DNA of 59,587 bases, the filler included, from Stramenopiles sp. TOSAG23-6 (Eukaryota): the NCBI GenBank assembly GCA_900128565.1. It is 2 parts of 2 records of this genome, joined end to end, with 100 filler letters (N's around TTAATTAATTAA, not from the genome) between each part and the next. Parts side by side here need not be neighbours in the genome. Positions count along the whole stretch, not along the records: positions 1 to 29,767 come from LT635968.1; 1 more part is not named here. One strand, given 5' to 3'. This document shows, one piece after another, positions 4,954 through 29,767 of this stretch (the first letter of the stretch is position 1; the number at the start of each line of letters is the position of its first letter). The notes under the pieces are model-generated. The model ran no database searches and was not told where the DNA came from. It saw only the letters and a list, made by a program, of their open reading frames with translations. Both the position numbers and the translations under genes were made by a program.

Positions 4954-5241
4954 TTTCTTTAGAAATATAGTTTTGTTTTGACGCACTGATAGGTTTACTT
5001 ACTCAATGAAGTGTTAATTGGTAACATTTGCATCAATAATGTTGATTAGATGCGAATAATTACAACAAAAATGAAAGATCGTAGTCGAGAGTACCAACGC
5101 GATTTCGGATTTCGATTTGATTTCGACGGTTTCAACTACCCTACCGTCCGTTGAAGCAAACAAGGTATTGTTCCCATTATTCTCAATATCATGTTATTGC
5201 ACAATGAACTGGTAGACTACGTATAATACTTATCGAAAAAT

Positions 5242-8200
5242 ATGGGACAGAAGATAGGCAAATGCCAGCTCCGGCCAGAGTTTCAAAACTCACTAATATT
5301 AGACATGGCTTTATTATCAAAACTTCAAGAAAATATACAGAAATGTAGAAAAGTCAATAGAGGTAAAAGCTATAATTGCACTTCCATAGTTTTCAATGAT
5401 GTCGCTGGGTTCTTCATATCTAATGAATACGATGAGAAGAAAGTGACTTCTCTACTCTTCGAGGTTTTGGATACAGATGGTGATGATACTATTGACTTAT
5501 TGGAATTTTACATCGTTATGGTTTTTTTATCTACTATATCTAGACCCAAGAAAATTGAGTTGATCTTCAATACTTATAATTTCCAGCAAAAGGAGCGCAT
5601 TAGTGTAGCTTTGCTCTTTATAATGATTTCAAGTTTGACTTCAGGCCTATCAAAGCTTGCAGACACTCCGAGTCCAAGTCCAATTGTATGCCAAAGTCAA
5701 ATTCTACTAATATTAGGTTTGAACATCGAACAAAGCAGACGTAAAATGCGCAAGATATTAAATAAAGGAGTTTCGATAGAAATGGTTGCAGAATATATGT
5801 ATAGCTCATCAAGTGTTCAAACTTGGTTTGATTATTTTAATCTCACGGCAACAGGCCGAATTTCAACTGATCGATATGAAGAAACACAAAACGCTTCAGC
5901 AATTGTTAGACAAATTCAACGCCTTTCTCACAAAGTTAGTCTTCTCACAGTAGAAATTAGTGATCGAAGCTCTGAGTTAGTGAATGAAATATGTGAGTAT
6001 CAAAAACAGCAATTAAGACACGAAATAACAATAGATACATTCAGGAAGCGTTCAAAGGAAGTGTTAAAAAATTTGGAGAATGAATTGGAAATGGAAGTAG
6101 CAGACAGAATTTTTTTTAGAGATAAATTGACTCATCTAAAACGAGGAATTAATTTTTCAAAACGAGACATCCTTGAAGTTAAACAAACAATAGAAACATT
6201 GAATAACACAGCGTATATACCAGGCTCGAAACTGAGTAGCACAGTTCAAGCACGTCGGGAAGCAATGAGATTGTTAGAGATTTGGTCTGCTTGTCAAATA
6301 GCCGAACAATTTACTAGACGTCCGACCAATCAGGCTGAATATTTGATCACTGAAGAAAACAGCAACCCTAGACCACCAGTAAAAGGTGTAATTATTCCAC
6401 CTGACGTTAACTTAAAACTAAGCTGGATATATGGGTATGATGGAAGTCTCGGAATGTGGCATAATGTGCGATATAATAAAAAACATGATATTGTATACAC
6501 TGCTGCACAGATAGGTGTAGCGTTAGACAAAGCTGCTTGGTCTCAAAAACATATGATAAGCCATAGTCATAAAATATCTGCATATACAATGCACCCAAAT
6601 AGAATTGATATTGCAACTGGAGAATTTGGCGAATATCCATCTATATTAATATGGTCATCTTTATTCCCAAAGGTTCCAAAAATACATTTAAGTGGATTCC
6701 ATGCTGTTGGTGTTGGCAATCTAGCATTTAGTCCATGTGGAAAACTACTCATTTCAATAGGAAAAGATCCTCTTCAGCATATTGCGGTGTATGAATGGGA
6801 AAAAGAATTAATAGTATTTGCAACACCAACTACATCATGTCGCATAAATGGTGTTATTTCCTGCTCATCTCGGGGCTTCATAACGTACGGCGAAGATCAT
6901 TTGTGCTTTTGGAAAGAAAAACCAACTGCATGTATGTTTTAATTTTTTTTCAATTTTTTGTCTAAATTTTTTTTATAGGAAATTTTGTACCTAACAATTT
7001 TTTTATGATTTTTTTTTGAAATATTTTTCCAAAATACATCTGACATTGAAAAAGAAAGAAATAGGATGAGAATGGAGAGGATAGCACGACGCGCATTACA
7101 TAGTCAAGCAAAAACCAATGCACGTGGGTCGGACTCGGATATATCTCCAATCAATTCTCCAAAGGTTGATCGTTTTAGAAAGCACAATATTTCTACAATA
7201 TCTGGCGGTAGATTCCAAAACTTGGATAATGATAAAAATAATGATAAAGAAACTGCAAAATCCAATAGAAATCCTCAAGATGTAACTGATAATCATACGA
7301 TAAAGTCAACGGAGTTTTATGGGATGTGTGGCCTTTCGCGAATGAAAAGTTCACCCAAAACATTCTATTGTGCTTCAGCAGTATTAGGCCCTGCAATCAA
7401 TGGAACAGTTTTAGAAAACGATAATAATGGTATGAGTATACTGGGATCTTCGTGTGGTAAGCTATGCTTATACCATGGCCAGCACATGCTTTGCTCGATA
7501 AGTGCTCATAAACAATCTCTGGGTGGTTGCACTTCTGTATTTTCATGCTCACATGGAATACTTAGTGGTGGTGGGGATGGTCGCCTTTTTGTATGGAAAT
7601 TAAAACATACAGAAGCGGACGGCTATAAGCTAATTATTCATAAAATGATTGAAGTTGCACAGTTTGGGTGTTTAACGCCATGTGTACAATCGTTGTGCTG
7701 GCATGATAATGGCGACACAATAATTCTTGGTGTTCTCAGTTGTGAAGTGTATGAAATATCCTTACTTCAAAACATTGATATCAATAACGGACCTATAATA
7801 CACTGCCATTCTGCGCGAAATGAAGTTGGGGAAATGTGGGCACTTGCTGTGCACCCGACGTTACCTCGTGCAGCAACGGCTGGAGATGATGGTATCGTAA
7901 GAGTTTGGGATATAAAAACACATAAACAAATAGCTGCTGTGCGAATGCGATGTATGTGTCGTTCGGCATCGTATTCCTCGAAGGGAACATGGTTATGCAT
8001 CGGTTTAGGTGGTCCCGAAGAGATCCGACCAAAATCATCACGTAAAGATGGCGCATTTTGTGTTGTGAACCCAAACAATTTGAAAGTAATATGTGAAAGA
8101 CGTTTCTCACATGCGTGGATATCCGCCGTTACATTTAGTGCAAATGATGAATTTCTTGTCGTGGGCACTGGAAGTGGTGAGATATTCTTACATCGATGTG

Positions 8201-11200
8201 TTATACATGGTATAGGATCTGCAACTGGTATAAAATTGGATTTTCCATTGATACACAAATTCAAAGTTCGAGATTCTGGTGCCGTGCGAAGACTTGACTT
8301 TGACAAAAGAAGTCGCTGGTTACAAGTAGAATGCCGACTTACTTTTGCAAGAAAGCGGTGGGTTGAAAGATTCGATATTAAAAAACTATTACCAGGAGAA
8401 GCCAAGGACAAGAAAAACGTCACGTGGCATACTTGGACTATGACTGTTGGAGATATGTTGGAAGGTATCTACTATGGACAAGTGCCTTTAGAAGTATGTG
8501 CTAAATCAAGATCGGGAAAATTAGTTGCTATAGGAAGTGGCGCTGGAGAAGTAATGCTTGCGCGATTTCCATGTAAGAATTCTGGACCGTTGGTAAAACA
8601 TTTCTGTGGCTCAGTTAGTCACATTTCCAACTTAAAATGGAGTTATGAAGACAAGTATCTAATGGTTTCCGGGGGCGATGATAAATGTGTATTCCAATAC
8701 ACTACACAGATTGATGATGCCGATCCAAATGCAGAAGGAAGGCGACAGAGGCTTGAGCTTCTTCACGAAGACCAAAAGAAATTAAATTTAGAATCCAAGA
8801 AGGTCTTCCGACAGACACGAGATATGTTGGCGCCTTTCATCAAAAAGAAAAATGCTCTTATTTCGCGCCAAGAAATTCTTGTAAAAGAAATANAAAGCCT
8901 TAAAGAACAAGCAAGTAAGTTCAAAGCTATTGGAAAGGAACCACTGTACATTACAAATATGTTGTTTAATGCGCGAAAAGAGTTGAAAGAGTTAAATCCG
9001 CCGTTGTCTTCGATACGTAGACGGCTTGCAGAACATACCGTAAAACTCAAAGGTAAAGATAGTCTTTATGTAGAATTGCAAACGAAACAAGCAAAGCTCA
9101 AGAGAGATATTGAAGAAATCTCAGGATATTCTGCAGATGCAATTATTGGGGGGGTTCTTATTGATAAGACTGATTCTTTAGATAATACTGAAGAAGCGAC
9201 AGCTGGTGCTTTAAGAGTTGCGTATTGGGCCAACACCAAAGAAAACTTATTGGATACCGAAGACTTCATCGGGGATCGTACAACTGCAGCTCCAAAAAGT
9301 ACACTTGAATTATCCTGGGTTTATGGGTTTGATGNTAGAGGAGTTCAAAACAATCTGATGTATGTGGGAACCAATCAAATTTTGTACACAATAGCCCGAG
9401 CCATTGTAATTTATGATGTTGTAACACACACACAGCGTCGCTTTGGCGAACACCATTTCGACATACTTAGTATTGCTTCACACCCCAATAAAGAACTTAT
9501 CGCGTCGGGAGAGCGGGGGGATATCCCCATGATAAAAATCTGGCGAATTGATGATCTTAGTGTTGTACAGACTATTGTAGGCTATCATCGAAAAGGTATC
9601 TCACATTTGTGCTTTTCCAAACAAGAGGGTCGATATTTACTCACCGTTGGTGAAGATTTTTGTCATTGCATTGCTATGTACGATTGGAAAGTTGGCGAAG
9701 TTCTTTGTCATGTAAAAGGTGGGGTTGAGACTATATATGCGGCTATATTCATGCCAGATACTTGTGGCTTCATCCAATGTGGGTATAAACATATTAAAGT
9801 GCATAAATTTCATGGTCGTCACGTAGAAACGAAACGTGTTTTATTTCATGGCAAAGGCGACCTTCAGCGGTTCTTGTGTGTATGTTTTTCCGGATCATAT
9901 CCAATCATTGGTACCGAAGATGGCCACTTGTATCAATTACGGAGTGATTCCCGGAATTTATGGAAGGTTGTCAAAGCACATATAGGTGCAGTGAACTGTA
10001 TACGAGGGTACACCAATTGTGTTATTAGTGGAGGAAACGATGGTCTTGTAAAAATTTGGTCAACAACGCTTGTTCTCCAGATAACATTGGATTTGAATGC
10101 TCTCGATCAAAATGTTGACGATACTTGTGACATAGCTGACGCATATAGTGGTGACGAAGCTACATCAAGTGATGATGTAAATGCATGTACAGACGATGAA
10201 CCCTTGTTAGCCGACGATTCAAAATTTAAAGGTCAACTTTTAGGGAATAATTGGAAAAAGGTCCTAAATGAACGAGCGCGTCGAAAGCAAGAAGCAAAAA
10301 CATCAACCCAACAAAGAGAGAAAGAGAGAAGGGAGCGTTCTGAAAGACAGGTTGATTTGTATGAAAAACGAAACAAAAAACAAATAAGAGAACTTGAGCG
10401 ACAAAAGCGTAAAGAAATAAAATTGTCTGAAAAGTTGAAGCGTAAAGAAGCCCGAGCACAGCGGAGGGCTTTAAAGGCGACTAAGAAAGCATTGAAACAA
10501 TCTAATTTAGATGATAATGCAGATGATGAAGCAACTGATATTTCTAGTGATCCCGAGGATACCGACGACATTACATCCGATTCTGATTCCGATTTGTCTA
10601 ATTTGTCATCTTCATCAGATGAAAATGCCGATGGCGGAGAAAAAAAAATGACTATCAGTAATACGGTGAAAGATCCAGAAGGGCCTGAAAAGTGGCAATT
10701 GTGTCTTCCTAGTAGTTTTAGGAAGATACGCGCATCAAAATTGCGTGAAATGGATTTTAAGGACTCAGGAGGGAACTTTGAAGGTGCCATTGAGTGTGAT
10801 TTATCTGGGGAAAAACTTGCTAACGAATATTTCGATTTCGAAACGAAGCTTAAGGAAATGGAGAATACGGGGAATGATAGTGAAAGCGAAAAAGAAGAAG
10901 ATGCCGAATTTTGGTACACTCGAATTAACAATGATGGTAAAGGTCGAGCATTCATCCTATCTTCGCACGCATATAATCTAGCATTTCCTACCAAAGCAAC
11001 AGATCTGAAAAAACAAAACTTTTTTAGAACTTCTTTGACTCGTATTGTGCAATCTATTCCTGGAAAAGTCACTGCTAAGTATAAAGAAATTAGCATCGAC
11101 GAGGACGCTGAATTTCTTTGTCCTCATTCAAATGAAGATCTCAAAGAAGAATTCTTTTATCATGCTTGGCTGAGAGACGATACACCAATAGATATATCAA

Positions 11201-14200
11201 TAAGTGCATTTGGAGAAGAATATTCAGACGGGGATCTATTGAAATTAGCTGAATTTAATATCGCCGAAACAAACTTTGAGAAAGACAAAGATTCAGATAC
11301 TAGAAGTTTATCAAGAACATCATCGCCTACAAATTTGGATAATTCTAAGCCCAATGAAAATGTCGATCTGGCATCTAAGAATAGCCCAGAAGATCCAAAG
11401 TTTGGTGTTGATTTTCCAGAATTACCAGATTTTATAGATAAGAATGATGTTAACGAAATTAACTTTGAAACTGAACATGAAGACAAGAATGAACTATCAA
11501 GTAGTGGAAATTATGAATTATATACATTGAAAAATCATCCAGATGCAAACACGCGCGAATGGCATTCAATATTACGTGAAGGTGGTGATGTTCGAGCGAT
11601 GATTGCTGAAAAAGCGCGAATGGATGCAATTGCAGACGCAATTCGTTTAGCATCGGAAGCCGATCAAAATATATTCGCAGGAGTTGACGATGACATGGTA
11701 AGCTCGGGTGAAGGGAAACTGTACAACTTCAAGACAGAGTTTCGCGCCGAAGGTGATTATCGTACAATGCAGCTATTAAATCTAGAAAACACTAATAAAA
11801 ACAAGAATGAGAATGAGTTTGAACGATTGTTAGGTAATCATAAGGCCAATGATAATAGTGACATTTCTTATGACTCTAGCTCTAACGACAGTATGGCAAG
11901 TTCCGGTGTTGAAAAACCATTCTGTATCCGTGATGGAGTACATTTGAATGGTGATAGTGATGAAGAAAATGTATATGGCACTGTCATGAGCGATTCATCT
12001 GCGTACGACAGTAATTGGTCTGGTCCTGGTGCAATTTCAGATAGCAGTGGTTTGTTAGATTTATTTGAGCTAAAGGATGGTTTATCGCCATTTGCTGAAG
12101 GTCGGTTAGCTCGGACCCAAAGACAAATCAGAAATGGAATTCTTGATGATGCGTATATACCAGGTGTATTAAATCATCCTAAACACATGCGAAGATTCGA
12201 CCCTAGACGCGTAGAAATTTTTGACCAGGAAGTTGTTTTGGCTAAATGTATTAAAGATTATGATTGGATGGTGGAGGGCGATATCGATGAAGTATTGGTG
12301 GGCACAATGGTGCTCGTTCTGGATAACAACTTTGATGCTCGTCCTGGTCCTTGCAGTCCCGATGATAAATGGATGGTACGTGATATCCACAATTCCAAAA
12401 ATGTTGGCACAGCCTTCGGTCATTGTTTCGAAGTAATTTCCAAGAGACCATTAGGAAAGTCACGAATGGGTTGCTTACAAAAGTTTTACGCAGAATATGC
12501 TCCAAGTCGTAAAGGTTTATTAACAGTAGAAAATACTCTATTGCGATATCAAAACAAGGAACAAAAGCTCTTCAACTTATTACATAAAAAGTATGGCAGT
12601 GCCCCAGAGGAATTAATTCTACCAATGTTCGAAGCTCCAAAATCTGAGGATTTATCAATTGGTATGCTTGTTGAAGTCAATGTCAGAGGTAAAGGCAAAT
12701 GGTTCAAAGGATTTATTCGTCGTCGTAGAGGTCGCCAACGATTTGATGTAGAACTAAAGGATGGCGATCCAGACTTAATTTTATATGCTAGCGACCTATA
12801 TAGTGCCGGAGAAGACGATGGAAGTTTATCTGATGAAACTCTTAATCAATCTGAAGATTCCGACGAATGGACTTCTGTAGGAACCATAGATGACGATGAA
12901 GTGAAGGTGATTGAACAAAAAGAAGTAAAGGTACCAAAATTTCTTCAATTAGCGAAACAAACTCAAAATAGAACCCCGACTAAACCAATTCTTGTGAAAA
13001 CAAAAGTGTCAAAGAGAACAAAGGACAACCTTTTTAGACATAAAATTGCATCACTATGTTGGGATGGAGGTGAAAAGGTCGTTGTCGGTACACTCAGTGG
13101 ACAAGTAAGAGAAGTATGGGTCAACGACGATAAAAAGACAATCGATGTTAATAAGAATCCAGTTGTACATGGTCAATGGCAATGGGATTGGGTCAGAAGG
13201 ATAACTACGGACAGCTATGATATGCATAAGCCTATTGCAATGTGCTTTCGTAATCGTCATAATGAGTTCTTTACAGTCGACGGGGCTTTACTTTCTGTCT
13301 ATACGTTTGAACATCATTTGGCTCCATTAAAAAGGAATAAAAGAAGAAAAGCAGTTTACATGAGACAGAATGGAAAACTACGATTATCTGAGTCATGTCG
13401 TTCTACCCCTGACGGAAAGCTTGTAGCTGTTGGGCACACAGGAATATTTGGTATTGGATTCTCAACATGCACACTATATGACACAGATACTTTGAAACCA
13501 ATGTACTTCTTTCGTGACACTGAAAGAAGCAACCTTAGCACAACGACTTGTATTCAGTTCAGTAAAGACGGGAAATTTATAGCAACTGGTATGAGCAATG
13601 GATATGTACACATCAGGCAAGTTGAAGAATTTTATGAAAACAAAACAAAACGGTTCGTACTAAAATGTTCAATAAATATGTCAGAAAATCACGAACGAAT
13701 TGAGCAAATGGATTGGTCCACTTCAAATGCTAACTTAAGAGCTACAGACAAACTAGGGAATTTAAGATATGCTAATTTGAAAAATTTAGAAACTGCAGAT
13801 TTTATATGGCAGAAAGACACTCTTGCAATTGTAGCTCAATCTACATCGTGGGTGACATTCACCTGTAGGGATTCATTTTGTAACATAAAACGACATAGTA
13901 CAAACAGACTAACATTTGACGGAAATCATATACCAACGACAGGTTGCAAAACAATGAAACATAATAAGAGACAATATATTGCTGCTGGTGCACCAGGTGG
14001 ATCATTGCTGTTTATGAGCTATCCTTGGATCAGGGGGAGAGCAAATTATAAATATCATTTACATACTTCAGGAATTCGTCAAATGGAATTTTCTTTTGAT
14101 GGCAAATCTCTTGCTGTTTGCGGAGGAATAGATAGAGCTATTTCGTTATGGTCAAAAGAGTATGTGGAACAAATGTTTGAGTGGGGAATTTCATTAGATT

Positions 14201-17200
14201 TTACACAATACTTATTAGAAAAAGATGCGTGGTATATGAGCCCAGAAGAAAATTCATTCGTCTCTAAATCAATGTTAGTAGAAGATGGAAAATTGCGAAA
14301 AGCAGGAATTCCTTTAAACATGTCTTTAGTATGGTGTTATTCCCCAGTTTGCTCCGATGTTTTCTACACACAAAATCATGAAGTTGTATTCTATTCAGAA
14401 TCAGTCGCTGTGGTATACAACAAGAAAAGACACCAACAGAAGTTTTTCGAGAAACATATGGCTGATATTTCGTGCATTGCTCGATCTAACAAAGGTGATG
14501 TTGTGGCCACAGGCGACGTGTATCATACCCCAATGATTCGTGTATGGAATAGCATGACAATGCAAGAGTCATGCGCATTAAAGTTAGATACAAAAGAAGG
14601 CGTAGATTGCATCGCCTTCAGTAAGGACGATTTGTCGTTGGCTGTAATCGGAAAAGATGCGGAGCATACATTAAGTATCTTCCGATGTAATGGCCCACAC
14701 TGGGGATTTGGAGGAAATCTTTTAGCATCACACGGAATTGGTCCCGCACCATGTATATCTGTTAGCTTTACTCCATGGTATGATTTGCCAATTATGACTG
14801 TTTCGTTAGACACCGTTAAGTTCTGGCAATTACGAGGGCGGAATCTGCGTTGGATATTTTCTATAGATGAAGATGAGGAAAACTTGAAAAAGCAACAAGA
14901 AGTAGATATTGAAATTGGTGATGGTCTTCCTACAAATATTCGATGGTTAGGAATGAATGACAATAATGACCTAGAAGTTGTCGATGGTGTACAAAAAATG
15001 TACAGATCTGACGGAAATGAACGTGCTGTAACACCTATCACCATCCTACGCACAGCAACTGAAGATAATAACACCAAAACTCAGGACGGCGAAACTGATG
15101 ATACAAGTCCAGAATACATTGCAGCGCAAATGAGAGACACATGCACACTGTTATTTGGTAAAGTTAATTCAGAAACAAAAAACGATGAAAGTAAAAACAA
15201 AGCACACAGGATTAACTCTGAAAAGAAAAAAAACGAATACGACTTTATACCTCTTCAAGGAGCTCAGTTGTTACCTATGACGAATAATGATTCTAAGTCA
15301 AGTGAAGATGACAATAAAAAGGGCGCGAAGAAGTCACGTCGTAAATCTTTATCAGGCGCCATAGTCCACGGGATTGATAGTGAAATATTAAACCCATTTG
15401 CATCTATTCAAGGGAAACATCGGAGTTCGATTGAAAAATTAGCAAAATCGAAAAAACAAAATTGGATAGCACCACCTGGATTAGGTGTCTGCTTGATTAG
15501 TAATCTTCGTTACATGGAAAATGAGATTGATGGGCTAATTTCTCTGAAAGGTCTTTCTAGTAATGTAGCTGGTGGAGTTGGCTCATTTGAGATAGGTTTT
15601 GGTGAAAGCTTATCAAGCGATAAAGAATATAAATTACAAAACGATAAAGATTCTTCAGCATCTTCTAGTTCAGATGAAATGGAATATGTAAATGAAGAAA
15701 ATAAGGATTTGGTTCTTCAACAAAGGAATGTTTTAGATACTTTGCGAAATAAAAACAAACCAGTTAGGCTTATTCAGCGAACAGACAAGCCGGGCAAGAG
15801 AAAACTAAAAATACATACTGGGCTAAGCATTGATACAGATTTAAACGAAGGATTAATTAGCCCGCCAGGGACTTTGAGTCCGTCAAGACCATCTACAAAT
15901 TCAAGCTTGGTAAGCCTACGACAGATGAGTTCTGTGTTGGAGAGTGACCGCTTTTCAAGAGACGGAAAAAAAAATAGTAGGTTCAGTTTTCAGCCAGATT
16001 CTCGAAGAAGCAGCGCTAAATCAGGAAAACGAAACAGTGGTGTACAAATGAGTTCCCCACAGTCATCTGAAGGAAGTCGGCGCCAGTCCGTTCAGTCGTC
16101 AAATAAGAGGAACAATCGTCGAATGAGTAAAGATCTCACTAATATAGGAGGAAACACATTGAAGCAAAACCTAAAGAATATAACAACTACAGCTGGGCAA
16201 ATAAATGAAAATACTTCATCAAACAGGCGGATGAGTAAGACTGGCAAGATGAGAAGATTGAGTAAAATCTCAGGTGGGCGTAGATTAAGTCAGTCAATAA
16301 AAATGAAAAATGTAAAAAGAAATACCAGAAGGTTGAGTAAAGAGTTGACTACTATGGCGAATGAAAGGCGAATGAGCAAAAAGGAAAGTACACGATATAT
16401 TCGACGCTTGAGTGAATCAGAATCAAAGCGAGTAAATTCGTTGGATAAAAATGGAATGCGAAGATTAAGCCGAGTTTGTGACTTGGGCTCTTATCAAGGA
16501 AGAAGTTCCCGTCAAAGTCACAGGCTTAGCTTTGTTAGAAAAGACTCGCGTGCGAGTAAGGCTCTGAAACGCATGAGTAGCATAAGTAACTCTTACGGCG
16601 ATGACAATGTTGTCGAGCAAGCATCCCATACTGCGGATATTCTAGACGAAGATGACACTGCAGTAGCCGCCCAGATACTGTGTATTACTCAATTTGGTGA
16701 ATTCATGATAGGTGGTGACGTAGATGGGTTTCTTGTTATATTTGAGTACGAGATCATAACAGAAAGAGTCAATGCGCATAATGATGAAATACTTTGTTTG
16801 CATTCAACTTCCATGGGCCTCGCAAGTGGCAGTACCGATGGTATAGTCAAACTTTGGAACCATCGCCTGATAATGACCCATCAGTATAATATGTATCAAA
16901 TGCCTAGTTCATGTATACGAAGTATCTTTTGGAACACCGAAGCGGATTCAATTCTGGCAGCGATGGAGGACGGTAAAGTTGTTGAGGTTACCATTCATAG
17001 TGGAACAGTTACAGAAATCATGGATGCTCACCATGATGATGTCATTATTGATTTAGCGACACACCCAGTAAACCCCCTGCTTGTGAGTATCGGTGCTGAT
17101 AGACGGATGAACATTATACATACCCAAAACCAAGGAATCATAAGAAAAACACAATTTGATACAGACCCAACTGCAGTGTGTTGGTTCCCCAAAAGCAATT

Positions 17201-18012: not shown

Positions 18013-18091
18013 ATATTTATATCCATTAGTTCGAGTTAAGAATGCACTCTTACACGTTTTCAAATAAAGGAATATCAATTTATTTATTTAT

Positions 18092-19788
18092 TTATGATGA
18101 GAAAGAATCAATACTTGAAGAATTAATTCCTGCTTTTTTTTTCATTTTATCTTTACCCATCAATATATCAATTGAAGCACGTTCATGTGAAGGAACACCA
18201 TTGAATGAACTTTTATTAGAATAAGCCTTATCATCCGATTCAGATGTATTTGAATCTGAATGATAGTTGTCAACATCAGAAACGAAAGGGGATATAGCGG
18301 GAGATGTGGATACTGTAGAAGGTTCTATATTGGATTGTAACACTAATGCTCGAGGAACAATTGAAGCATCGGATTGAGTTCGTCTTAAGACTTTTTTTTT
18401 TTTTTTTGAGATTACTTCGATACTGTTTCGTCTTCGATTTTTTTTTGGTTGTTTCGATTTATTGCGAATATTTTTATAGAATGGGAATAAAGGTTTCTCT
18501 CCTTTCCTCGCATTATCCTTACATACTTTGGCAGCGTATTTGAGGATACGATGAAGTACTGTATAATCAATACCACTATTTCTAATACAGTGACTATATA
18601 TCTGTGGATTTGAATTAAGTTCAATAATATAGCCACCCCCTGATTTATACGATTTACTTAAATCTCCTAAGAAATCAATTCCAATCATCTTTTGGTCTGG
18701 AAACATTGCTGCTACAGTTTCACACATTTTAAAATTGTGTTTGTGCATAGCAGCAATAGGAAATCGAAATGCTTCAGCACCAAGTGACACATTTGCTTTA
18801 TCCTGTACTACTCGCCACTCATGTCTTTTGGAAAAATATTTCACAAAAAAAACTCGTTAGGTACAAAATTTCGTACAAAAAAAATCGAAGTTGAAAAAAA
18901 ATCAAACATACATCATTCTCGGGAACATCGTCAAATGGACCTAATGTTTTACTCACTTTTATTATTGATATCCGACTTCGTTTTCTAATTCGATTATGTT
19001 TAGCTACAAGTTCAGCAGTTGTGGATGAACCATCCCCTAAAACACGAGCTGGAACCCTAACAGCTATATCGCATATTACCCCTCCAAGCAGAAGAATCCT
19101 ATAGTCATGACCTGACACCTGTTTTTGAATTATACATGGTGATGAATTACTTTTCCATTCTTGTGACAAAGCAACCTTAATTTCTTGAAGCGAGCTTAAC
19201 CCCATAACAACTCCTTTCCCCTGAGAACCTTTAATTGGTTTTACCACATAGGGTGGAAAAGTTTTTTTTGGAAGTCGTGGTTCTACACCCAGGTCACGAT
19301 GAACAATAACAGTTGGACAAACAGGCATGTATTGTGAAAAAATATTACAAGAGTTTTGTTATTAGGTACAAAATTTTTCAAAAAAAAAAATAGGTAAAAA
19401 AAATAATGAAAACGTACATAGATTTGGCCGATAAGAATCGATGCGTTTCAAATTTATCTTTCATTACCTTTGCAGAACGTGTGCAACTCAAACACTGAAA
19501 CTTATGTTTCTTAATGATGAATCCAGGATCACCTCTTGGAGGTCTAATATACACTTGACTATTTCTTTTTGACATAACTTCGACATTCCAACCAGATAGG
19601 TGTTTAGCAGCATCAGCATACAGATTTGTGTACTGTGAACGACACCTTCGAGGAACACTGCGAAATTTTTTTTCAACCCTAGCCCAATTGATTCTGACAA
19701 AAAGTGAGTTATGTGGGTCCTCGCAATCCCCAAATTCGTTTATACTATTTTCAGTGGAAATATTTGGAGAACTCAAACACATTCCCAT
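18092..19788 (-). CDS. ATP-grasp ligase, cyanophycin synthetase (CphA)/GshF-like domain; 3 exons
   Basis: KDKFET, PYVVKPIKGSQGKGV, GHDYRILL, RVPARVLGDG, ANVSLG, GIDFL..DLS, IIELNSNP; three ORFs fused in frame by removing two family introns. Confidence 0.8.
18821..18911 (-). other. Non-canonical intron GT-AT (91 nt)
   Basis: GAT|GTATGT...AAAAGACAT|GAG joins PEND|EWRV. Confidence 0.88.
19327..19417 (-). other. Non-canonical intron GT-AT (91 nt)
   Basis: TAT|GTACGT...CACAATACAT|G joins AKSM|PVCP. Confidence 0.88.
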
Positions 19789-20113
19789 CTTGTGTTACAT
19801 GCACCAACTTCAGCACAATAGCAACATGGCCTTATCGGCCATAGTGGCAAAATATTTTTGACGCACTTATGCCACTGAGCTGAAACTAATAACTTCTGAC
19901 GCGTTATTATCTGAATGGATAAGCAAATCACACACACAGCTATATGTGCAGAAATATTAAATCAATTAAGTTTACAGAAAATATCACTAATATGGATGGC
20001 ACTGAATTAACGGAAAATTTAACGTAAAGAATATCGATATCTGTACCGGGAAACCGGGTACCTAGTAATCAAACTTTTATCTTTATTATGAGCAAATGGA
20101 TAATTATATTTTT

Positions 20114-22028
20114 CTACTCATCACTGTCATCGACAATAATATTAACTCTGTCCCACGAATTATTAAGGATTCCACGTAAATTCCAGATTGACGCAGGATT
20201 CTCAGGTTGTGTATTGAAAGATTCATCAATTGCTCTAACACAAAGTTCAACATTTCTACCTTTTTTGTCATTCACTACAGAAATTTCAGTGGGAAGACCA
20301 ATACTTTTATCACCATCTTCAGAAAGCACAACATCAGCCTCCCATAGAGTCCATGTACTGTGAAAAAAATATTTCAAAAATTTGAAATTCATTAATAAGG
20401 TAATTTGATGCAAAAAAAATATTTCAAAAATTTGATACAAAAAAAAATAAATTTGAAATTCGTGATGTAGACGTACATGCCCAGGCTTTGCCTAAAGGTT
20501 GTTGTGATCCTTCTTTTAATGTAGCAGTGTGCCAATTTTCACCACCATCAGCCGAGACATCAACCCGAACAATTTTTCTACCACCACCAGCCCAAGCATA
20601 GCCAGCAACTGAAATAGCTTCACCTTTTTCTGCTTCAATCACTTCACCTTCTTGAGGATAAGTGATTGCAGACTGTACAGGTAACTCTTGTACTGAATGT
20701 CCTTCATTCACATCAACACCAGAAAAATCTCGAATATTAGGACTATATCCTCTATATGCCTTACCTCTCTGCCATGTGCTATATGCCTCTTCATGACTTA
20801 AAGTGATCTTGTCCACCCATTTGACAGAACGAGCACCCAAATGACCTGGTACTAAAACTCGTACAGGATATCCATGTTCTGGTGGTAATTCTTCACCATT
20901 CATTTCAAAGGCAAGCAAAACATCTCCTTGGTGACTGCATGCCTTATGCACGGATACCGATGCGTCATATGGTTTATCTGTAGCAGTAAATTGAACATAT
21001 TTTGCACCCTTTTCCATTGCATCATTTTCAGAATCCACACCAGCAAGACGAAGAACATCACGTAACCAAACGCCACCAAATTCTGCAGTAGACATTGCAC
21101 CTCTGCCCCAAGGTAAACCTTGTGTAGGTCGAATCTCATTTAATCCAGAACGTCTGTTGCCTGCGCACTGTAAAGTCATCACAATTTTTTGTTTGTCAAA
21201 AAGATTTTTCAGATCGTCAATAGTCAAATCCAATTCAACTGAAAGAGATTTACCTCTTATCTTTAATCGATAATCTTTCGGATCAACTTTTGGAACAGGA
21301 AAATGATGACGACAATAAAACAATCCCTTTGGTGTAATATATTTTTCACCTATGAGCGAGGCAGGAGGTTCAGCATTAAAGGCACGCTCAGTATGCACGT
21401 TGAGTGCTGCGCTACGATGACCAGTACCAAATTTAGGTTCATCTATATAAGGATCATCCAATGCCATTGGCTTTGCCTCATTAGGTGCGACATTTCCGAT
21501 GCGCATTTGTCTCAGTGTGTCAGCTATTAGTGCAGCAGGTCCGCTAGCTAAGTGCTGTTGATAAATATCCCAATATGGACCAACATCGGCACCAGCGGCC
21601 ATTGCAATACGGTTCCCACCAGGATGTACGGATATGAAATCAGTAATATCATAAACACCATCTTTATAGGTAACCCATACACCGTTCTCGCTAGTCTTGT
21701 GTTCTGCAATCTCTGCTCTAGTGTATGTGGGAAGACCACTCTTACGCTGCCCAATACTATCTAAAGGATTCGTTTGAGATGATTCAGCAGCCGCTACTAA
21801 TGAAATAGATGACATCGATGATTCACCACCACATATAAATTTGTCGAAACCATTCAAAGCAAGAAACGAGCCTGCTGCAAACACAGAAGCAGCAACTCCA
21901 AGTTTTGAATAATTTGTTCCAGAAGAAGATCTAGAGCTAGAGCCAACAAAACGAACGCATGAACGATACTTACATATACTCGCTCGTAAAGGCTTCGCAA
22001 ATATACTTGAAACACCACGAGAAATCAT
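20114..22028 (-). CDS. SUOX: Mitochondrial sulfite oxidase (cytochrome b5 + Moco + dimerisation domains); 2 exons
   Basis: Transit-peptide-like N-terminus, VYDITDF..HPGG, FYCRHHFPVP, LQCAGNRR, HGYPVRV, KAWA|WTLW, WNLRGILNNSW. Confidence 0.95.
20353..20476 (-). other. Non-canonical intron GT-AT (124 nt) with internal duplication and degenerate branch motif
   Basis: Restores AWAWTLW; the CAG 5 nt upstream of the AT end would frameshift. Confidence 0.88.
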
Positions 22029-22292
22029 CCTGCTTCTATCAAGCCTTTCTATTAATAAATCGTTTGGTGGTTGTCGAGTTGTTTGCTACTAATATTCATC
22101 CGGTAATATCAGATAATCTTCGAAGAATCCATTCAAGGTTATTGATCAACAATGTCATTTTTTTGCAGGTCAAAACAAAAGCCTGATACCCGGTACCAAT
22201 AGTAGAATTCGAGTGATTCGAGTCAAAGTTTGTGTTCACAACAGCCAACACGTTCTCCATATACCTAGTAAATATAGTCGGAATACATATAA

Positions 22293-23235
22293 ATGTCAGA
22301 ATTTAGTTCAATTGAACAGGCATTAGCTGCTCTTCGCCGCGGCGAATGTATTATTGTTTTAGACGACGATAATCGAGAAAATGAGGGTGATTTGATTATC
22401 CCTGCAGATAATATCACGCCGGAAGTGATTAGTTTTATGTGTCGAACGTGTACTGGAATAATTTGTTGTGCCACAACAGAACAGCGAGTTTCAGAACTAA
22501 ACTTGCCTCTGATGGTTCCAAAGAATACAGAGAAACATGGATGTTCTTTCACAGTATCTGTAGATTATAGACATGGAACTACAACTGGAGTTTCGTCTCA
22601 TGACCGTGCGTTGACGATAAAACAACTTGCACCTGGCTCAGGAAGTGTGAGCAGTGATTTTAATAGACCGGGTCATGTATTTCCACTTCAAGCCCGTGAA
22701 GGCGGTGTATTGCAACGTGCCGGTCACACAGAAGCGTCCGTAGATTTGGCAAAATTATCAGGATACTCTCCTGCAGGCTGCATTTGTGAAATAATGAATC
22801 CAGATGGAACCATGGCTAGACTTCCGGAGTTAAGATTATTTTCGAAAAAACACAGTCTTCATATGATTACCATAGCAGATCTTATGACATATCGACTCAC
22901 TCACGAAAGTTTTTTGAGTTCCAATTTATTGAAAAATAATTCTGTTGTAAAAACACCATTTGGTTTGTTTAATAAAAGTGTTTTCCGATTCACAGTTGAT
23001 GGATCGGAACATCAAGTTCTAACAACAACTAGAAATACTGAACAACTATTCTCAAGAGGGTTAGGGTTATCTGAAAAAATTGGTGTGGTATTTGTTCACG
23101 TGGAAAGTATTGATGACAACTGTTTGTTTGGCACAAGCAATGACAAAGAAAATGACCCTACCTCTCGTTCTAGTCTCTTGCGTGGTATATCTGACGTTGC
23201 TAAATATTCTTCTAAAAGTGTTGGCGTTGTTATTC
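22293..23235 (+). CDS. ribB: 3,4-dihydroxy-2-butanone-4-phosphate synthase plus start of a degenerate GTP cyclohydrolase II-like domain; 3' part missing
   Basis: DDDNRENEGD, FTVSVD, TTGVSSHDRA, RPGHVFPL, GVLQRAGHTEA, ICEIMNPDGTMAR. Confidence 0.92.
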
Positions 23236-23338
23236 ATACGTTTTCATCATTCATTTCAATTATTTTTTTTTGTTTTTTGTAATGAAATTTTGTACCTAAC
23301 GATTTAATTTTTTTTTTTGCGTCATTTTCACAATATAT
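23236..23338 (+). other. Non-canonical intron AT-AT (103 nt), apparently chimeric ribB/PAN2
   Basis: ATACGTTTT...TGTACCTAAC...CACAATATAT; flanking exons belong to different genes and phases do not match. Confidence 0.65.
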
Positions 23339-26300
23339 GCGTGTTGGTTCTGCTGTTGCAACTTTACAAAATCATTCTGGAAGAGTCAATATGGTAGCTA
23401 GTGAATTCAATACTCTTGTGACATGTGGTTCTTCATTACTTGCCGAACGAACGTCACAACAAATTTGGATAAATGAAAATGTATGTTTTATATGAATTTC
23501 TAATTTAAATTTTTTTTTCATACGAAATTTTGTACCTAACAAATTTAAGTTTTTTTTTTTGAAATATTTTTTCACAATATATGGAAAGGAAGAAGTTAAA
23601 AAAAGACGTTTAGGACCGGACCCAATGATGAATGTGTATGATGTGCGAAGAATTCCACCGACTCTTCAAAAACCAGTAAATTTTAATACCATGGGCATGC
23701 CCTCTAATTTACGTGTGAAACCGTGTGTGCTGGAATTTCTTCCAGGGCATAGACTTCAATTAGTGGCTGCTTCAATATCTGGCATTGTACGTACTTTTGA
23801 TTTAAGTGGTCATTCATTTTCTCCTGGGGCCGATTCACAACTTGCAATGGCTCCAGGCGCACATGTTTCTAGTATTAGTGTATCAAGTTCTGGTAATGTT
23901 ATTGCTTTGGGAGATACTGCTGGTGTTGTGCATTTATGTACAACTACTCCAGAAGATTCTCAAAAACGACGAACAGATGGTAGTGTTTGTATACCAAGCT
24001 TAAATCCTACTGTATGGAGAGTTGATGATCCTCCTCCAATGTGTAGAAAACCGTTGTTATCTATTGATCCATCCGATTGTGCACCAGCTGGGAAATATGC
24101 AATGTTACCTCAATTAGGAGAGAGGATGCGTATCAAAGAAAATCCTCCTCTATTACTCTCTACGCCTTTACGATGGATGGAAAATCAAAGCATGTATGTT
24201 TCCAAAATTGAATGTTTGTACCTACATTTTTTTTTTTACGATTTCAAAAACAAATTGTACCAAACAAATTTCTTTTTTACTAAAAAAAATTTTTTTTTTT
24301 TTTCAAAAACAAATTGTACCTAACAAATTGTTTTTTTACTAAAAAAAAATATTATTTCACGATACATTCAACAGCAACCTGCTCGAGTTATTTCAAAGGC
24401 CGTATTATCTGCTGTCCTTAAAAGTCAACCTGGCGACTATATTAGTTTTGTTTCAAATCAAACATTTGGTTTCAAAAAGGGAACTTTGTTGTTTGGAAAT
24501 ACAGATGTAATCACAGTATCTGACCCCCGTGGTGTAACAAGTACGGAAGATGATGGTGATACTGATGACGTCGATGCAGATTTGCCTCGTGTTGAGTTGC
24601 CTGAAAATTATAAACCTGTTGTTATCGATATGAGAGCTTTGAGGTTTGGATTAGATACTTTTGATTTCGGTTCGTTTAATGGAACGAAATTTGCTGGACT
24701 TGAAAATGGTTTCTCGAATGATTATGTTTGTTCCGAGTTACAAATGTTATATCATATATCACCTATTCGGTCTTTGTTATTAAATCATCTTTGCGCTGAT
24801 CCTACCTGTATTTCATGTGAAACGGCGTTTTTATTTGATATGTTACTTCAGGCTCAAGGTGTATGTTTTATATGAATTTCTAATTTTATTTTTTTTTCAT
24901 ACGAAATTTCGTACCTAACGATTTTTTTTTGAAATATTTGAAATATTTTTTCACAATACGTGGCCCTCCAAAATCGAAAAGTTGCCAACCGACGAATTTT
25001 CTCCGCGCATTACGATTGGTCCCAGAAGCCGCAGCTCTTGGTCTATTGGAAACAAAGGGTAGTCCTTCACGTTTACCTCTTGGAATGCGAATTGAGGCTT
25101 TACATGAATTCTTACTCGAAAAATTTGTGAAGGAATGTGGTGATAACTCAAGAGTTCAAGATTTAATGGGAATCAAATTAAGATCTTTTTGTCAATGTTC
25201 TGAAGGTCACGGTAGTTCCCGTGATACTATTGCGTTAAACACACGACTTCAATATCCAAAATTACCATTGAAGTCAAATATCCCAAGTTTTAAGGATATT
25301 TTGAAACGTTCTTTGGTGAGAAAATTAAAGCAACCTAGAGCATGGTGTAATATATGTAAAAAGTATTCTGCAACGAAGCAAAATATTTGGCCATATTCTT
25401 TACCTGTATTTCTTAGTTTTACTGCGAATGTTAATGTTGGTGAAAAAGCTCGTAGGTTCTCTACCGATACCAAAGATGTTTTACCTGCTGAAAAGTTTTG
25501 GAGCGAGGGAGGTAAAGAATGGTTACCTTCATATATAGCTGTATCTGTCGATGCAGAGGATTCATTTTCTGCCAAAACAAAATGCGATGCTGTTAATTCT
25601 CATGCATCTGAAAACGTACTCATTGCTGAAGGATCATCCTTACAAGAAATCGTTGCATCGCTTGACGAGTTGGATGGACGTGGTAAACCTCCTTTTGTTT
25701 TCGCAAAGCCTAAAGCCGTGTATTTTTTACATACTGAATGTTCAAATGTTTTTTTTGTGTGTTGCATCCAACTGATTCAAATTTTGTAACATTTCTAACA
25801 ATTTTTTATAAACCAAAAAAAAATATTTTTTCACAATACATCGATCTGCTACGTACTCCTGTCAAGGGTAATATCTCTACTGGTAATTTTCCTAAAACGC
25901 CTATTAGTACAAATGACCAGAATAATTCGTGTCAGAGCAGCTGTAATAAAAATGACCAGAATAATTCGTGTCAGAGCAGCTGTAATAATTCTCGTCGTAT
26001 TTATCAGTTACAATCTGTGATATCTCATGTGAATCCTTGTCCTGGGTCTACAAGCACAAGTAGTGGGCATCTGATACTGCATACTCTTTCTAATGATAGA
26101 TGGTTGTTATTTAATGATTTTAAAATTATTGAAGAACCTTTATCAAAAGTTATTGACTTCACTTCACCATGGCGCACAGCATCTGTGGTTGTATACAAAG
26201 CAGTATCAGATGTTGATTCCGAAATGGCTACTGTATGGAAGCAGAGTAAACAAAATATGGTTGCCGCATCTATTTCACCTATCAAGCCACAATTATTTGG

Positions 26301-26438
26301 CGATAAAGATGGTCCTCTTATGGGTGAATATTCACCGACAACGTATCATAAGTCATTACGTCGTAAAGATAGTGGAGCAATGAATACTCCAATTGGAAAA
26401 TTAGCCTTAAGTTTCTTATCTAATCCTGAAATGGACAT
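23339..26438 (+). CDS. PAN2: PAN2 deadenylase, internal portion (end of WD40 and pseudo-USP domain); 5 exons; N-terminus and nuclease domain absent
   Basis: HSG...TLVTCG, DPMMNVYDVR, FGLDTFDFGSFNGTKFAGLEN, HLC...CISCE..FLFDML, SCQPTNFLRAL...EAAALGL, WLLFNDF. Confidence 0.9.
23481..23582 (+). other. Non-canonical intron GT-AT (102 nt)
   Basis: AAT|GTATGT...CACAATATAT|GGA, in frame. Confidence 0.85.
24194..24367 (+). other. Non-canonical intron GT-AT (174 nt) with internal tandem duplication
   Basis: GCAT|GTATGT...CACGATACAT|T, in frame (QSI|QQQP). Confidence 0.85.
24861..24961 (+). other. Non-canonical intron GT-GT (101 nt)
   Basis: GGT|GTATGT...CACAATACGT|GGC joins QAQG|GPPKSKSCQ. Confidence 0.82.
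25720..25841 (+). other. Non-canonical intron GT-AT (122 nt), diverged copy
   Basis: GT|GTATTT...TTCTAAC...CACAATACAT|C, in frame. Confidence 0.75.
25911..25988 (+). repeat. 39-bp in-frame tandem duplication in PAN2
   Basis: NDQNNSCQSSCN encoded twice. Confidence 0.9.
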
Positions 26439-26547
26439 GTATGTTTTATTTTTTTTTTTAAACAAAAAAATCGATTTTTTTTTCATACGAAATTTCGTAC
26501 CTAACGATTTTTTTAGATTTTTTTTTAAATATTTTTCCAAAATTTAT
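26439..26547 (+). other. Non-canonical intron GT-AT (109 nt) joining a PAN2 exon to an ILVBL exon
   Basis: CAT|GTATGT...CCAAAATTTAT|TCTTGCA; in frame but the exons come from different gene families. Confidence 0.7.
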
Positions 26548-28530
26548 TCTTGCAGGTACAGTCTGTGACTTTCGTATGAATTATGGTCGGTGTCTCAAAA
26601 GGAAATCACGAATTATTTCAGTAAATCGTTCAAAAGTTGATATACGTTTTATTATATTTTTTTTTAAATTTGAATTTTTTGTATGAATTTATTTTTTTCA
26701 AAAAATTTTGTACCTAACAAATTTTCAAAATTTTTTTTCAAATATTTTTCCAAAATACATTTAACTTTGAATTCTGATATGTTCTGGAAGCCTACTATAA
26801 CATCTCAATCTGATCCAGCCATGCATGTTTTTTTTTTTTCAAATTTGAATTTTTTTTTTATAGAAAATTTTGTACCTAACAAATTAAAAATTATTTTTTG
26901 AAATATTTTTTCACAATACATGTTTTTTATTTCTCTTGCCAAAATTCTTTGTGATTCTCAAGACAAACTTTCTACGATATGGGGTGTACGTTTTAATTTT
27001 TTTTTTGTAATTTTTTTTTCGTACGATATTTCGTACCTAACGATTTTTTACGTTTTAATTTTTTTTTTTGTAATTTTTTTTTCGTACGATATGTCGTACC
27101 TAACGATTTTTTTTTTTTTTGTAAAATTCGTGTTTTTTCACAATACATGTAAGTATACCTCCATCGAATCATCAAACTTCGATACAACATCCAAAAACAG
27201 AACACGCTGAGAGGAGATCAAAATGGGCTCAACAATTAAAGCAATCACAAAGAGAAAGAACGTTTTCACATTATGAATTTTTTACCTAAATTTTTTTTTT
27301 TTGGTTTCATACGAAATTTTGTACCTAACAAATTTCGAATTTAATTTTTTTTACAATATATGTGAAGCAAAGACTCGAAAAAAGGCGAATGAAATATCTA
27401 TCGGTCGTGGAAGTGCTAAAGGAGAAAGTCTCATCAATCCACTTGATTTATGTATGTTTTATTTTTTTTTGTACGAAATTTTGTACCTAACAATTTTTTT
27501 TAGAGTTTTTTATGTATGTTTTTTTTTTTTTTTAAAATTTGAAATTGAATTTTTTTTTTTTTTTTTTTATACAAATTTTGTACCTAACAAATTTAAGTTT
27601 TTTTTTTGAAATTTTTTTTTCAAAATACATGTTATCATTTAGATGCTTTATTACCTGACAATAGTATTCTTGTTGCAGATGGTGGTGATTTTGTCGGTTG
27701 TGCAGCGAATACAATGAGCCCTCGTGGTCCTCTCCGATGGCTTGATCCTGGTGCATTTGGGACTCTTGGCGTTGGTGGTGGTTTTGCACTAGCTGCAAAA
27801 TTATGTAAACCAGACGCTGAAGTATGGATTATGTATGTTTTATTTTTTTTTTCGGTAAAAAAAAAAATCGATTTTTTTTTTTTTTTCGTACGAAATTTTG
27901 TACCTAACAAATTTTTCTAAAATTTTTTTTGAAATATTTTTCCAAAATACATATGGGGAGATGGAAGTTCTGGCTATTCATTGGCCGAGTATGACACCTA
28001 CAAACGTCATAAAACACCCATTGGAGGTCTTATCGGAAATGATGCTTGTTGGATGTTTTATTTTTTTTGAATTTTTTTTAACTACATTTTTTTTTTTTTG
28101 AAAATTTTGTAGCTAACAATTTTTTTTTTTTTTTTTGAAATATTTTTCCAAAATACATGGACTCAAATTGAACGTGAACAAATACCAATACTAGATAGTG
28201 ACGTGGCATGTCCTCTTGACTATTGTGCGTACGAAAACGTTGCTAAAGGGTATGGTGGTAATGGTATTGAATGTCGAAAACCAGATGAGAAGGAAATACG
28301 TCAAGTGATCAGTTTGTATGTTTTAATTTTTTTTTTCAATTTTTTTGTCTAAATTTTTTTTTTGTAGTAAATTTTGTACCTAACAATTTTTTTTTTTTTT
28401 GGTAAAAAAATTTTTTTGAAATATTTTTCCAAAATACATGGCACAAAAGAAAATGGCATCAGGCGAACCAATGGTAGTGAATGCCTGGATTGGGAAAACA
28501 AATTTTAGAGAAGGTTCGATTTCTGTATAG
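26548..28530 (+). CDS. ILVBL: Acetolactate synthase-like/2-hydroxyacyl-CoA lyase (TPP enzyme), C-terminal half; 9 exons
   Basis: [95 protein letters not shown]; continuous only after removing 8 introns. Confidence 0.93.
26642..26760 (+). other. Non-canonical intron AT-AT (119 nt)
   Basis: GAT|ATACGT...AAAATACAT|TTA joins SKVD|LTLNSD. Confidence 0.82.
26823..26921 (+). other. Non-canonical intron GC-AT (99 nt)
   Basis: CAT|GCATGT...CACAATACAT|G joins SDPAM|FF. Confidence 0.82.
26986..27148 (+). other. Non-canonical intron GT-AT (163 nt) with ~62-nt internal tandem duplication
   Basis: GGT|GTACGT; two GTACGATAT.TCGTACCTAAC units; CAATACAT|GTA. Confidence 0.82.
27258..27361 (+). other. Non-canonical intron GA-AT (104 nt)
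   Basis: AA|GAACGTTTT...CAATATAT|GT, in frame ([11 protein letters not shown]). Confidence 0.75.
27452..27630 (+). other. Non-canonical composite intron GT-AT (179 nt)
   Basis: Joins INPLDLC|YHLD; second AT|GTATGT at 27514 and two branch motifs. Confidence 0.85.
27833..27952 (+). other. Non-canonical intron GT-AT (120 nt)
   Basis: Joins EVWII|WGDG (TPP motif). Confidence 0.9.
28051..28158 (+). other. Non-canonical intron GG-AT (108 nt)
   Basis: TT|GGATGT...AAAATACAT|GG restores GNDACWTQI. Confidence 0.85.
28316..28439 (+). other. Non-canonical intron GT-AT (124 nt)
   Basis: In frame (VISL|AQKK); 5' half nearly identical to intron 6932-7039. Confidence 0.88.
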
Positions 28531-29690: not shown

Positions 29691-29767
29691 ATACATTTTA
29701 GAAAAATATTTCAAAAAAAATTTTAGAAAAAATTGTTAGGTACAAAATTTTTTTACCAAAAAAAAAA
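29691..29767 (-). other. Non-canonical intron, 3' part, truncated by gap; ends TAT
   Basis: TGTACCTAAC...GAAATATTTTTCTAAAATGTAT|. Confidence 0.75.

Follow-up and report, generated by a model that had tools for sequence, protein, structure and literature searches.

In the tunicates Fritillaria borealis and F. pellucida, non-canonical introns derive from transposons and have been credited to elements resembling miniature inverted-repeat transposable elements (MITEs), according to Soo et al. 2026 (PMC13326754) and to Henriet et al. 2019 as cited in PMC11282704. In these animals, nearly all introns break the GT/AG rule and AT is the commonest 3' end in two genomes; PMC13326754 further states that a pyrimidine-A-pyrimidine triplet (YAY) is often found before the 5' splice site and that introns almost always terminate in such a triplet. 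Introners are known from Micromonas pusilla and Aureococcus anophagefferens (Huff et al. 2016, as cited in PMC11282704), and a survey has been published by Gozashti et al. 2022 (PMC9860276). Here, we analyzed a 59,587-nt stretch of DNA from Stramenopiles sp. TOSAG23-6 (assembly GCA_900128565.1), hereafter the window, which supplied all of the sequence evidence in the form of ten gene models and 29 complete introns. All of the introns in the window are copies of one T-rich repeat of about 100 nt. We propose that these introner-like introns are copies of one short non-autonomous mobile sequence, a reading to which we give a probability of about 0.58.

The eukaryotic DNA of the window is compact, and its exons are very long. 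The map of open reading frames (ORFs) contains open frames of 3,667 and 7,085 codons, and coding sequence is interrupted solely by short T-rich stretches. Reading every break between open frames led to the mapping of the 29 complete introns, which lie between positions 120 and 56536. An nhmmer profile built from 21 intron copies recovered the 29 mapped introns together with five other, mostly partial copies and gave no further match in the window at the threshold used (E<1e-3). One of these five copies is cut by the window start, two are cut by an assembly gap, one is a full copy at a suspect join between gene fragments, and one is a central fragment in a 3' flank. The earlier note on this DNA placed the family at 6930-28440, where it is indeed present, but the family is wider and extends from base 5 to base 56536. 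In the alignment, the copies display a 5' box (NNA[TC]GTTTT), a central branch-like box around GTACCTAAC that reads ..GAAATTT[TC]GTACCTAAC.., T runs, and a 3' box ending in AATACAT that reads TTTGAAATATTTTT[TC]CA[CA]AATACAT. With at most two mismatches allowed, the window contains 18 copies of the 3' motif TTTTCCAAAATACAT (0.89 expected) and 36 of the central word around GTACCTAAC; the 5' motif is found 19 times, where 1.92 would be expected. The element unit is about 90 to 125 nt in length, and introns reach 160 to 260 nt where two or three units are present in tandem. All of the intronic copies (33 of 33) lie on the sense strand of the host gene. Many copies also carry a GTAC motif at their start (GTACGTTTT), and the central box of most copies contains a 16-nt palindrome, GTACGAAATTTCGTAC (e.g., at 26489-26504), of which a T variant has one G.U-type mismatch. 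This palindrome sits just 5' of the branch-like CCTAAC box, which it overlaps.

The borders of the introns were set by the family alignment alone in 27 of the 29 cases, and by the reading frame as well for the MFSD5 intron MFS_4 and the truncated intron GT_1. To set the frames of short exons, we used a codon-usage score for which the two giant exons served as the training set. A single excision rule applies whatever the first two bases: the intron is the element exactly, from the base aligned to G1 of GTATGTTTT through the last T of ..AATACAT. With this rule, ten of ten spliced gene models are open, and 12 junctions align to homologues without any indel: the single junction of SUOX, four of the five junctions of MFSD5 (the fifth being located in a lineage-specific insert), and seven junctions of ILVBL. 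A border model shorter by 6 nt (GTTTT..ATAC) was rejected because it would insert at the junctions two residues that are absent from the homologues, and a canonical AG acceptor for the intron starting at 26439 (26439-26555) was excluded by the reading frame.

None of the 29 introns is of the canonical GT-AG type. The terminal dinucleotides are GT-AT in 20 introns, AT-AT in two, GC-AT in two, and GT-GT, AA-AT, GA-AT, GG-AT and AC-GT in one each, the last being found in truncated GT_1. The first two bases of the intron vary, and positions +3 and +5 to +9 (A and GTTTT, respectively) are better conserved than positions +1 and +2, whereas the final base is T in all 29 introns and the final dinucleotide is AT in 27. 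No AG is present within 15 nt of the 3' end in 13 of the 29 introns, and 19 have no in-frame GT-AG alternative. Where such alternatives exist, their use would remove conserved residues, WGDGS being one example. With its GTATGT, the 5' box makes a good site of the U2 type; the central box is similar to a branch site, and the 3' end is preceded by T runs. Introns of the U12 type (AT-AC) have a 5' consensus of ATATCCTT or GTATCCTT and a branch box, TCCTTAAC, located 10 to 20 nt from the 3' end. A U12-type identity was rejected, since the 5' box is GTATGTTTT and the CCTAAC box is located about 45 nt from the 3' end; an AT..AC reading is moreover impossible for the ten introns that follow an exon with an end other than AT. 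An Rfam scan of the window gave no match and hence no small nuclear RNA there.

The upstream exon ends in AT at 19 of 29 introns (2.7 expected; P=2e-13) and in GT at three more, and the downstream exon starts with G at 19 of 29 (6.5 expected; P=8e-7), or at 21 of 33 if the four partial copies that keep their 3' end are added by eye. The earlier note gave the same numbers for AT and for G, but based the former on 30 introns instead of 29 and counted four exons ending in GT instead of three. Splicing yields AT|G at 11 of the 29 junctions, against 0.8 expected. Upstream exons end in YAT at 16 introns and in AG at none. As in Fritillaria, YAY is found both before the 5' site (16/29) and as the last three bases of the intron (27/29). 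The AT|G pattern corresponds exactly to the canonical AG|G...AG|G once G is replaced by T at both -1 positions. As the earlier note suggested in the alternative, it may equally be read as the proto-splice site of this lineage, in place of AG|G.

Similarity between the introns extends beyond the splice signals. Alignment of the intron of the EML-like gene at 6932-7039 with the ILVBL intron at 28316-28439 spans 108 columns and shows 95% identity, in agreement with the earlier claim that introns of unrelated genes share extended sequence. Full-length identity amounts to 94% (108 columns) between the MSS51 intron and P-I_a, the intron that links PAN2 and ILVBL sequences, and whole copies from different genes are 90 to 95% identical. 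After removal of the boxes, the mean nearest-neighbour score of spacer 1 was 0.604, in comparison to 0.290 +/- 0.013 (maximum 0.330) in 200 shuffles, an excess that is overstated because a mononucleotide shuffle breaks T runs. Similarity limited to short functional motifs, which according to the earlier note would, together with ancestral intron positions, have pointed to converted old introns, was not observed. The spacers define subfamilies (e.g., ..CAATTTTTTGTCTAAA.., ..AAACAAAAAATCGA.., and GTACGTTTTCATYATGAATTTCAAATTTAT..) whose members occur in different genes, at distances of up to 37 kb. The nearest relatives of the introns are mostly found in other genes, as for the pairs geneA_i2 and MFS_5, AG_2 and GIANT, and P-I_a and MSS51, which favors dispersal over local duplication. 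Two or three head-to-tail units are present in each of five introns (24194-24367, 26986-27148, 27452-27630, 29200-29357, and 33950-34207). In some of these composite introns, the later unit begins at element position +3 (ACGTTTT or ATGTTTT), without the first two bases, and GT_1 lacks the 5' half of the element. Spacer similarity, subfamilies, and tandem and truncated units are not needed for splicing and favor copying. The intron phases are close to even (11, 8 and 10), whereas old introns show an excess of phase 0.

The individual copies are described here along the window, introns ending in GT..AT unless other ends are given. At the window start, a 3' partial copy (5-54, +) matched positions 55 to 103 of the nhmmer profile (E=2.4e-5) and ends in ..CCAAAATACAT before coding sequence. 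Both nhmmer and an open gene model support geneA_i2 (120-212, +), which belongs to subfamily B, and the intron of the EML-like gene (6932-7039, +). GT_1 (4422-4473, -) is only 52 nt long, has the ends AC..GT, and comprises the 3' half of the element only, its exact 5' border being ambiguous. Open gene models were obtained with AG_2 (18821-18911, -) and AG_1 (19327-19417, -) of an ATP-grasp gene, with PAN2_i1 (23481-23582, +) and PAN2_i4 (25744-25841, +; AA..AT), with K_4 (28928-29056, -), the composite K_3 (29200-29357, -) and K_2 (29480-29590, -), with the MSS51 intron (30867-30977, -), and with the single intron of the giant gene of 8,093 codons (56436-56536, -). A telomere-like CCCTAA run of two and a half units is present in K_4 at about 29017-29033 (-). 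Splicing of the SUOX intron (20353-20476, -) rebuilds the conserved AWAW|TLWE sequence through a split Trp codon (T|GG), as in every homologue. The composite intron PAN2_i2 (24194-24367, +), detected by nhmmer, has repeated central boxes, and PAN2_i3 (24861-24961, +; GT..GT) is flanked without a large gap by alignments to PAN2 proteins of the PDB, which are too loose to define the border at the residue level. P-I_a (26439-26547, +) links in frame the UCH part of PAN2 to the C-terminal half of ILVBL.

In ILVBL, gap-free junctions were found for ILV_b (26642-26760, +; AT..AT; NRSKVD|LTLNSD), ILV_c (26823-26921, +; GC..AT; SDPAM|FFISL), ILV_f (27452-27630, +; two tandem units; PLDLC|YHLD), ILV_g (27833-27952, +; EVWI-I-WGDGSS), ILV_h (28051-28158, +; GG..AT; gap-free against homologues), and ILV_i (28316-28439, +; VIS-L-AQKK). 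The two tandem units of ILV_d (26986-27148, +) were detected by nhmmer, and for ILV_e (27258-27361, +; GA..AT) the spacing equals that of the homologue P0123. Two 3' partial copies detected by nhmmer are cut by the assembly gap, at 29694-29765 (-) and, in a UCH gene of the USP type, at 29868-29921 (+). The central fragment at 30405-30444 (-), located in the 3' flank common to the MSS51 and UCH genes, is the sole copy outside an intron in the window. MFSD5 contains MFS_1 (33247-33342, +; GC..AT; AIVAG|QISS), MFS_2 (33458-33565, +; ENY|G), MFS_4 (33950-34207, +; AT..AT; SMY|MFVV) and MFS_5 (34299-34400, +; PFG|DLFS), all with gap-free junctions, in addition to MFS_3 (33708-33800, +), which gives an open gene model and whose junction is inside the lineage-specific insert. 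MFS_4 consists of three tandem units, and its border slides by 2 within ATAT. With respect to gene content, the giant gene (35208-59587, -) comprises at least 8,093 codons and one intron, its 5' end leaving the window, and encodes fibronectin type II and III, ephrin-receptor-like and C2 domains. The EML-like gene (5227-18012, +) comprises about 4,226 codons with repeated HELP/beta-propeller modules and one intron.

Database gene models exist for three of these loci, and all three models are mis-spliced. By tblastn, P0001 (SUOX, 20114-22085, -) and P0122 (ILVBL, 26548-28530, +) match the translation of the window block for block and differ from it by gaps only. Both are the best database hits to their exons and carry the source label GSMAST32, which by its name would designate a marine stramenopile (MAST) of group MAST-3. 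Judging from this block-for-block match, the GSMAST32 models are this same sequence annotated with canonical splice rules. A fritillariid tunicate as host, which the literature on similar introns in those animals had suggested, was rejected in view of this match and of a DHBP-synthase gene in the window, a gene not known from animals. A third model, P0242 (MFSD5, 32642-35176, +), has no such label and is 100% identical over exon 1 of MFSD5. P0122 skips the cofactor motif WGDGS to reach an AG, thereby losing GDG, and P0242 translates intron sequence. P0001 uses a chance GT..AG pair, with a gain of three residues, and four conserved SUOX blocks are deleted. The 3' box of the SUOX intron (20353-20362, -) differs by a single base, CACAGTACAT in place of CACAATACAT, and has thereby acquired a canonical CAG acceptor that is in frame with an inner GT. 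The database model uses this acceptor, which adds the three residues that are absent from the homologues.

Two of the copies coincide with joins between gene fragments. Around 23236-23339 and 26439-26547, three unrelated gene fragments follow each other on one strand, and each join lies within an element copy. The fragments are a RibBA-like ORF (a DHBP synthase followed by a degenerate tail resembling GTP cyclohydrolase II), the middle of PAN2 without its N-terminal WD40 part and its exonuclease domain, and the C-terminal half of ILVBL only. The first join is a full copy detected by nhmmer (23236-23339, +) that leads from the tail of the RibBA-like ORF to a PAN2 exon and is out of frame with the upstream ORF; the second join is in frame. 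Repeat-induced chimeric assembly is the likely origin of these joins, probably for 23236-23339 and possibly for 26439-26547, the alternative being real recombination between intron copies. The assembly gap (29694-29921; two N runs around a TTAATTAATTAA linker) lies between two copies that face each other on opposite strands, as expected where contigs end in a repeat. The location of copies at the gap and at both joins speaks in favor of a repeat family.

Searches beyond the window provided few further data. The element motif gave 25 single matches in genome contigs, in prokaryote records, which we take for chance on the basis of an estimate for an 18-mer, and one single match in viral contigs. 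Searching the ILVBL exons against metagenome contigs identified 80 loci, with a best identity of 77%, none of which yielded usable intron positions; 79 of the 80 loci match by tblastn, nearly all in one continuous frame and three with frame breaks. The literature on introns of MAST lineages and stramenopiles, on introners and on GT-AT splicing contains, in the main texts covered, no report of such introns for this lineage. Word searches for splicing and for non-canonical introns within reports on MAST genomes (PMC5778133, PMC12614181, PMC8163842, and preprint 10.64898/2026.04.17.719054) were negative.

According to the mechanism that we propose, the element would have entered coding DNA, preferentially at YAT|G sites, and only sense-strand copies would have survived. 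As homology shows, each copy brings all of the signals required for its own removal from the transcript, namely the 5' box, the branch-like box, the T runs and the 3' box. Removal would be spliceosomal and would rely on a machinery for which YAT can substitute for YAG as the 3' end, by analogy with Fritillaria, where the U2-type spliceosome has a duplicated and diverged U2AF. For the mode of spread, we lean toward DNA, in a MITE-like manner, over RNA by about three to two.

Several observations weigh against the copying of a mobile element. Every intron of the window belongs to the family, and the shared sequence could thus partly reflect a demand of the splicing machinery. The location of the copies in genes says little, because intergenic DNA accounts, by a rough reckoning from the ORF map, for only about 4 to 5% of the window. 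The element motif had no match in metagenome contigs, and the homologue search for proteins spanning the SUOX junction returned 76 proteins, with a best identity of 79%, none of them from the source organism. Intron density is uneven, with 8 introns in the 321 codons of ILVBL (0.51 expected) and one in the 8,093 codons of the giant gene (12.9 expected), a distribution that would equally suit old introns kept in old genes. The signature of a transposon is blurred as well. The inverted-repeat ends claimed by the earlier note are present but imperfect, since matching ATGTAT to ATACAT requires the exon AT to be counted and fitting the T run to the A run requires an indel. Neither a 9-pair end helix nor the palindrome displayed co-variation beyond that of shuffles, and RNAalifold found no consensus pairs in the alignment. 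The two junctions of an intron match at 74 of 116 positions, versus 69.5 when 3' junctions are shuffled among introns (P=0.049), which is marginal. Of the earlier proposal of a MITE burst into AT(G) sites, the presence of one family across unrelated genes is supported, and the MITE and its target duplication are conjectural. In agreement with the earlier note, no transposase domain was found in the 21 ORF translations of the window that were scanned. Non-consensus junction pairs (GG/GG, GC/GC, and GTG/GTG) do resemble duplications. A direct echo is indistinguishable from an inverted repeat because the junction word CATG is a palindrome, and the intron AT is near-invariant (27/29) but the exon AT is found at 19 of 29 introns only, unlike what is expected from a passive duplicate. 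Old introns that converged on long strict splice signals, perhaps with the help of gene conversion and without anything mobile, would account for the boxes found in all of the introns of the window, for a density that peaks in conserved housekeeping genes and reaches its minimum in the two giant ones, and for the lack of co-variation marking the ends as inverted repeats of a transposon. We nevertheless consider this explanation unlikely. It does not predict spacer similarity and subfamilies common to unrelated genes, nor two or three complete sets of signals in tandem, which are superfluous for splicing; no upstream exon ends in AG (0/29), and the phases (11, 8 and 10) lack the excess of phase 0 of old introns.

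Copies of the same family might also have spread via RNA, the excised intron being reverse-spliced at YAT|G, copied to DNA, and recombined into a gene, in a process that involves no transposase, inverted repeat or target duplication. Spread via RNA would fit the restriction of the copies to the sense strand and to transcribed DNA, sites that conform to the exon-junction consensus with no extra mRNA bases revealed by homology, the occurrence of one 5'-truncated copy and one internal fragment, and the lack of a demonstrable duplication. However, the sense-strand restriction is uninformative, because selection would produce it under any model, as antisense copies in exons would be lethal. Palindromic features, here the ATGTAT/ATACAT ends and the 16-nt GTACGAAATTTCGTAC, are commoner in DNA elements, and tandem units are no obvious product of reverse splicing. 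We regard this route as improbable. Removal by something other than the ordinary spliceosome, whether structure-guided excision of RNA, as proposed for Euglena, or removal at the DNA level, could explain borders that are independent of the terminal dinucleotide, with six dinucleotides (GT, AT, GC, GA, GG, and AA) at the 5' end, and consensus ends that can pair as RNA, 74% of the cells of the 9-pair end helix (helix 1) being able to pair. This helix, however, gains nothing over shuffles and little over registers slid by +/-2 (61-67%), RNAalifold finds no structure, and the U2-type GTATGT box, the branch-like central box and the T runs before the 3' end likewise speak against such a process, which we consider very unlikely. 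Least probable of all, to the point of being hardly tenable, is that the insertions are artefacts of amplification or assembly. The assembly gap and the two probable chimeric joins at copies are the observations that bring it to mind, but 29 copies occupy in-frame positions in ten genes, artefacts would respect neither frame, strand nor YAT|G sites, and three seawater DNA runs (X3-X5, all from one study) contain 42 to 60% of the words sampled from 18100-28000.

The copying of one mobile sequence into the genes of the window could be part of a larger phenomenon, which we put forward tentatively and with more doubt than conviction: in this lineage of heterotrophic marine stramenopiles, one self-propagating element of about 100 nt might have taken the place of the whole intron complement, with excision set by its internal sequence and not by the terminal dinucleotides, and with the YAY...YAY border rule of Fritillaria. 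Genome-wide non-canonical splicing would then have arisen independently for a third time, the other two cases being fritillariid tunicates and Amoebophrya. If so, the common YAY...YAY rule would point to a general constraint of the catalytic core of the spliceosome rather than to a quirk of one lineage. If genome-wide, the system would also offer, in a small and compact protist genome, an independent natural experiment on the drift of splice rules and the creation of introns by mobile elements. Because YAY recurs, and T stands instead of G at both -1 positions, "why GT-AG?" becomes a question that can be compared directly across kingdoms. In practical terms, the proteomes on which phylogenomic and functional surveys rely for this lineage may be systematically damaged, and could be repaired with the element rule.

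The introns of the window combine features of several known systems. Yeast introns have strict splice signals (GTATGT/TACTAAC), and the window resembles such intron-poor genomes with strict signals in its GTATGT-type 5' site, its CTAAC-type branch box and the limited variation among its introns. It differs from them in the identity of whole introns (90 to 95%), in the existence of subfamilies, and in having AT rather than AG at the 3' end. The nonconventional introns of Euglena, as described in PMC11282704, similarly have variable borders, junction repeats and a proposed transposon origin, but they lack a pyrimidine tract and depend on pairing of their ends, whereas the introns studied here are T-rich, with a yeast-like 5' box, a branch-like box and an end helix whose requirement is unsupported. 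Amoebophrya, a parasitic dinoflagellate, is likewise a marine protist with repeated non-canonical introns, among them introners, with short direct repeats at the borders and with inverted end repeats (PMC7789003), the last being imperfect in the window. The same source describes many families, inverted repeats of 8 to 20 nt and highly variable splice motifs, in contrast to the one family, long conserved internal boxes and near-fixed 3' AT found here. With the introners of Micromonas and Aureococcus, the window shares many near-identical short introns in unrelated genes, their own splice signals, the sense orientation and a marine host. Those introners are canonical GT-AG introns with inverted repeats and clear target duplications (3 bp and 8 bp), unlike the non-canonical ends, weak inverted repeat and lack of demonstrable duplication of the present family. 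In comparison to Fritillaria, the host is a protist and not a chordate, one family covers every intron of the window, and the 5' end is mostly GT, with GT/AT as the main class, instead of the AG/AC and AG/AT of F. borealis. Both systems nonetheless have introns derived from repeats, ends other than GT/AG, AT at the 3' end, the YAY rule (16/29 and 27/29 here), and T-rich tracts that have been kept.

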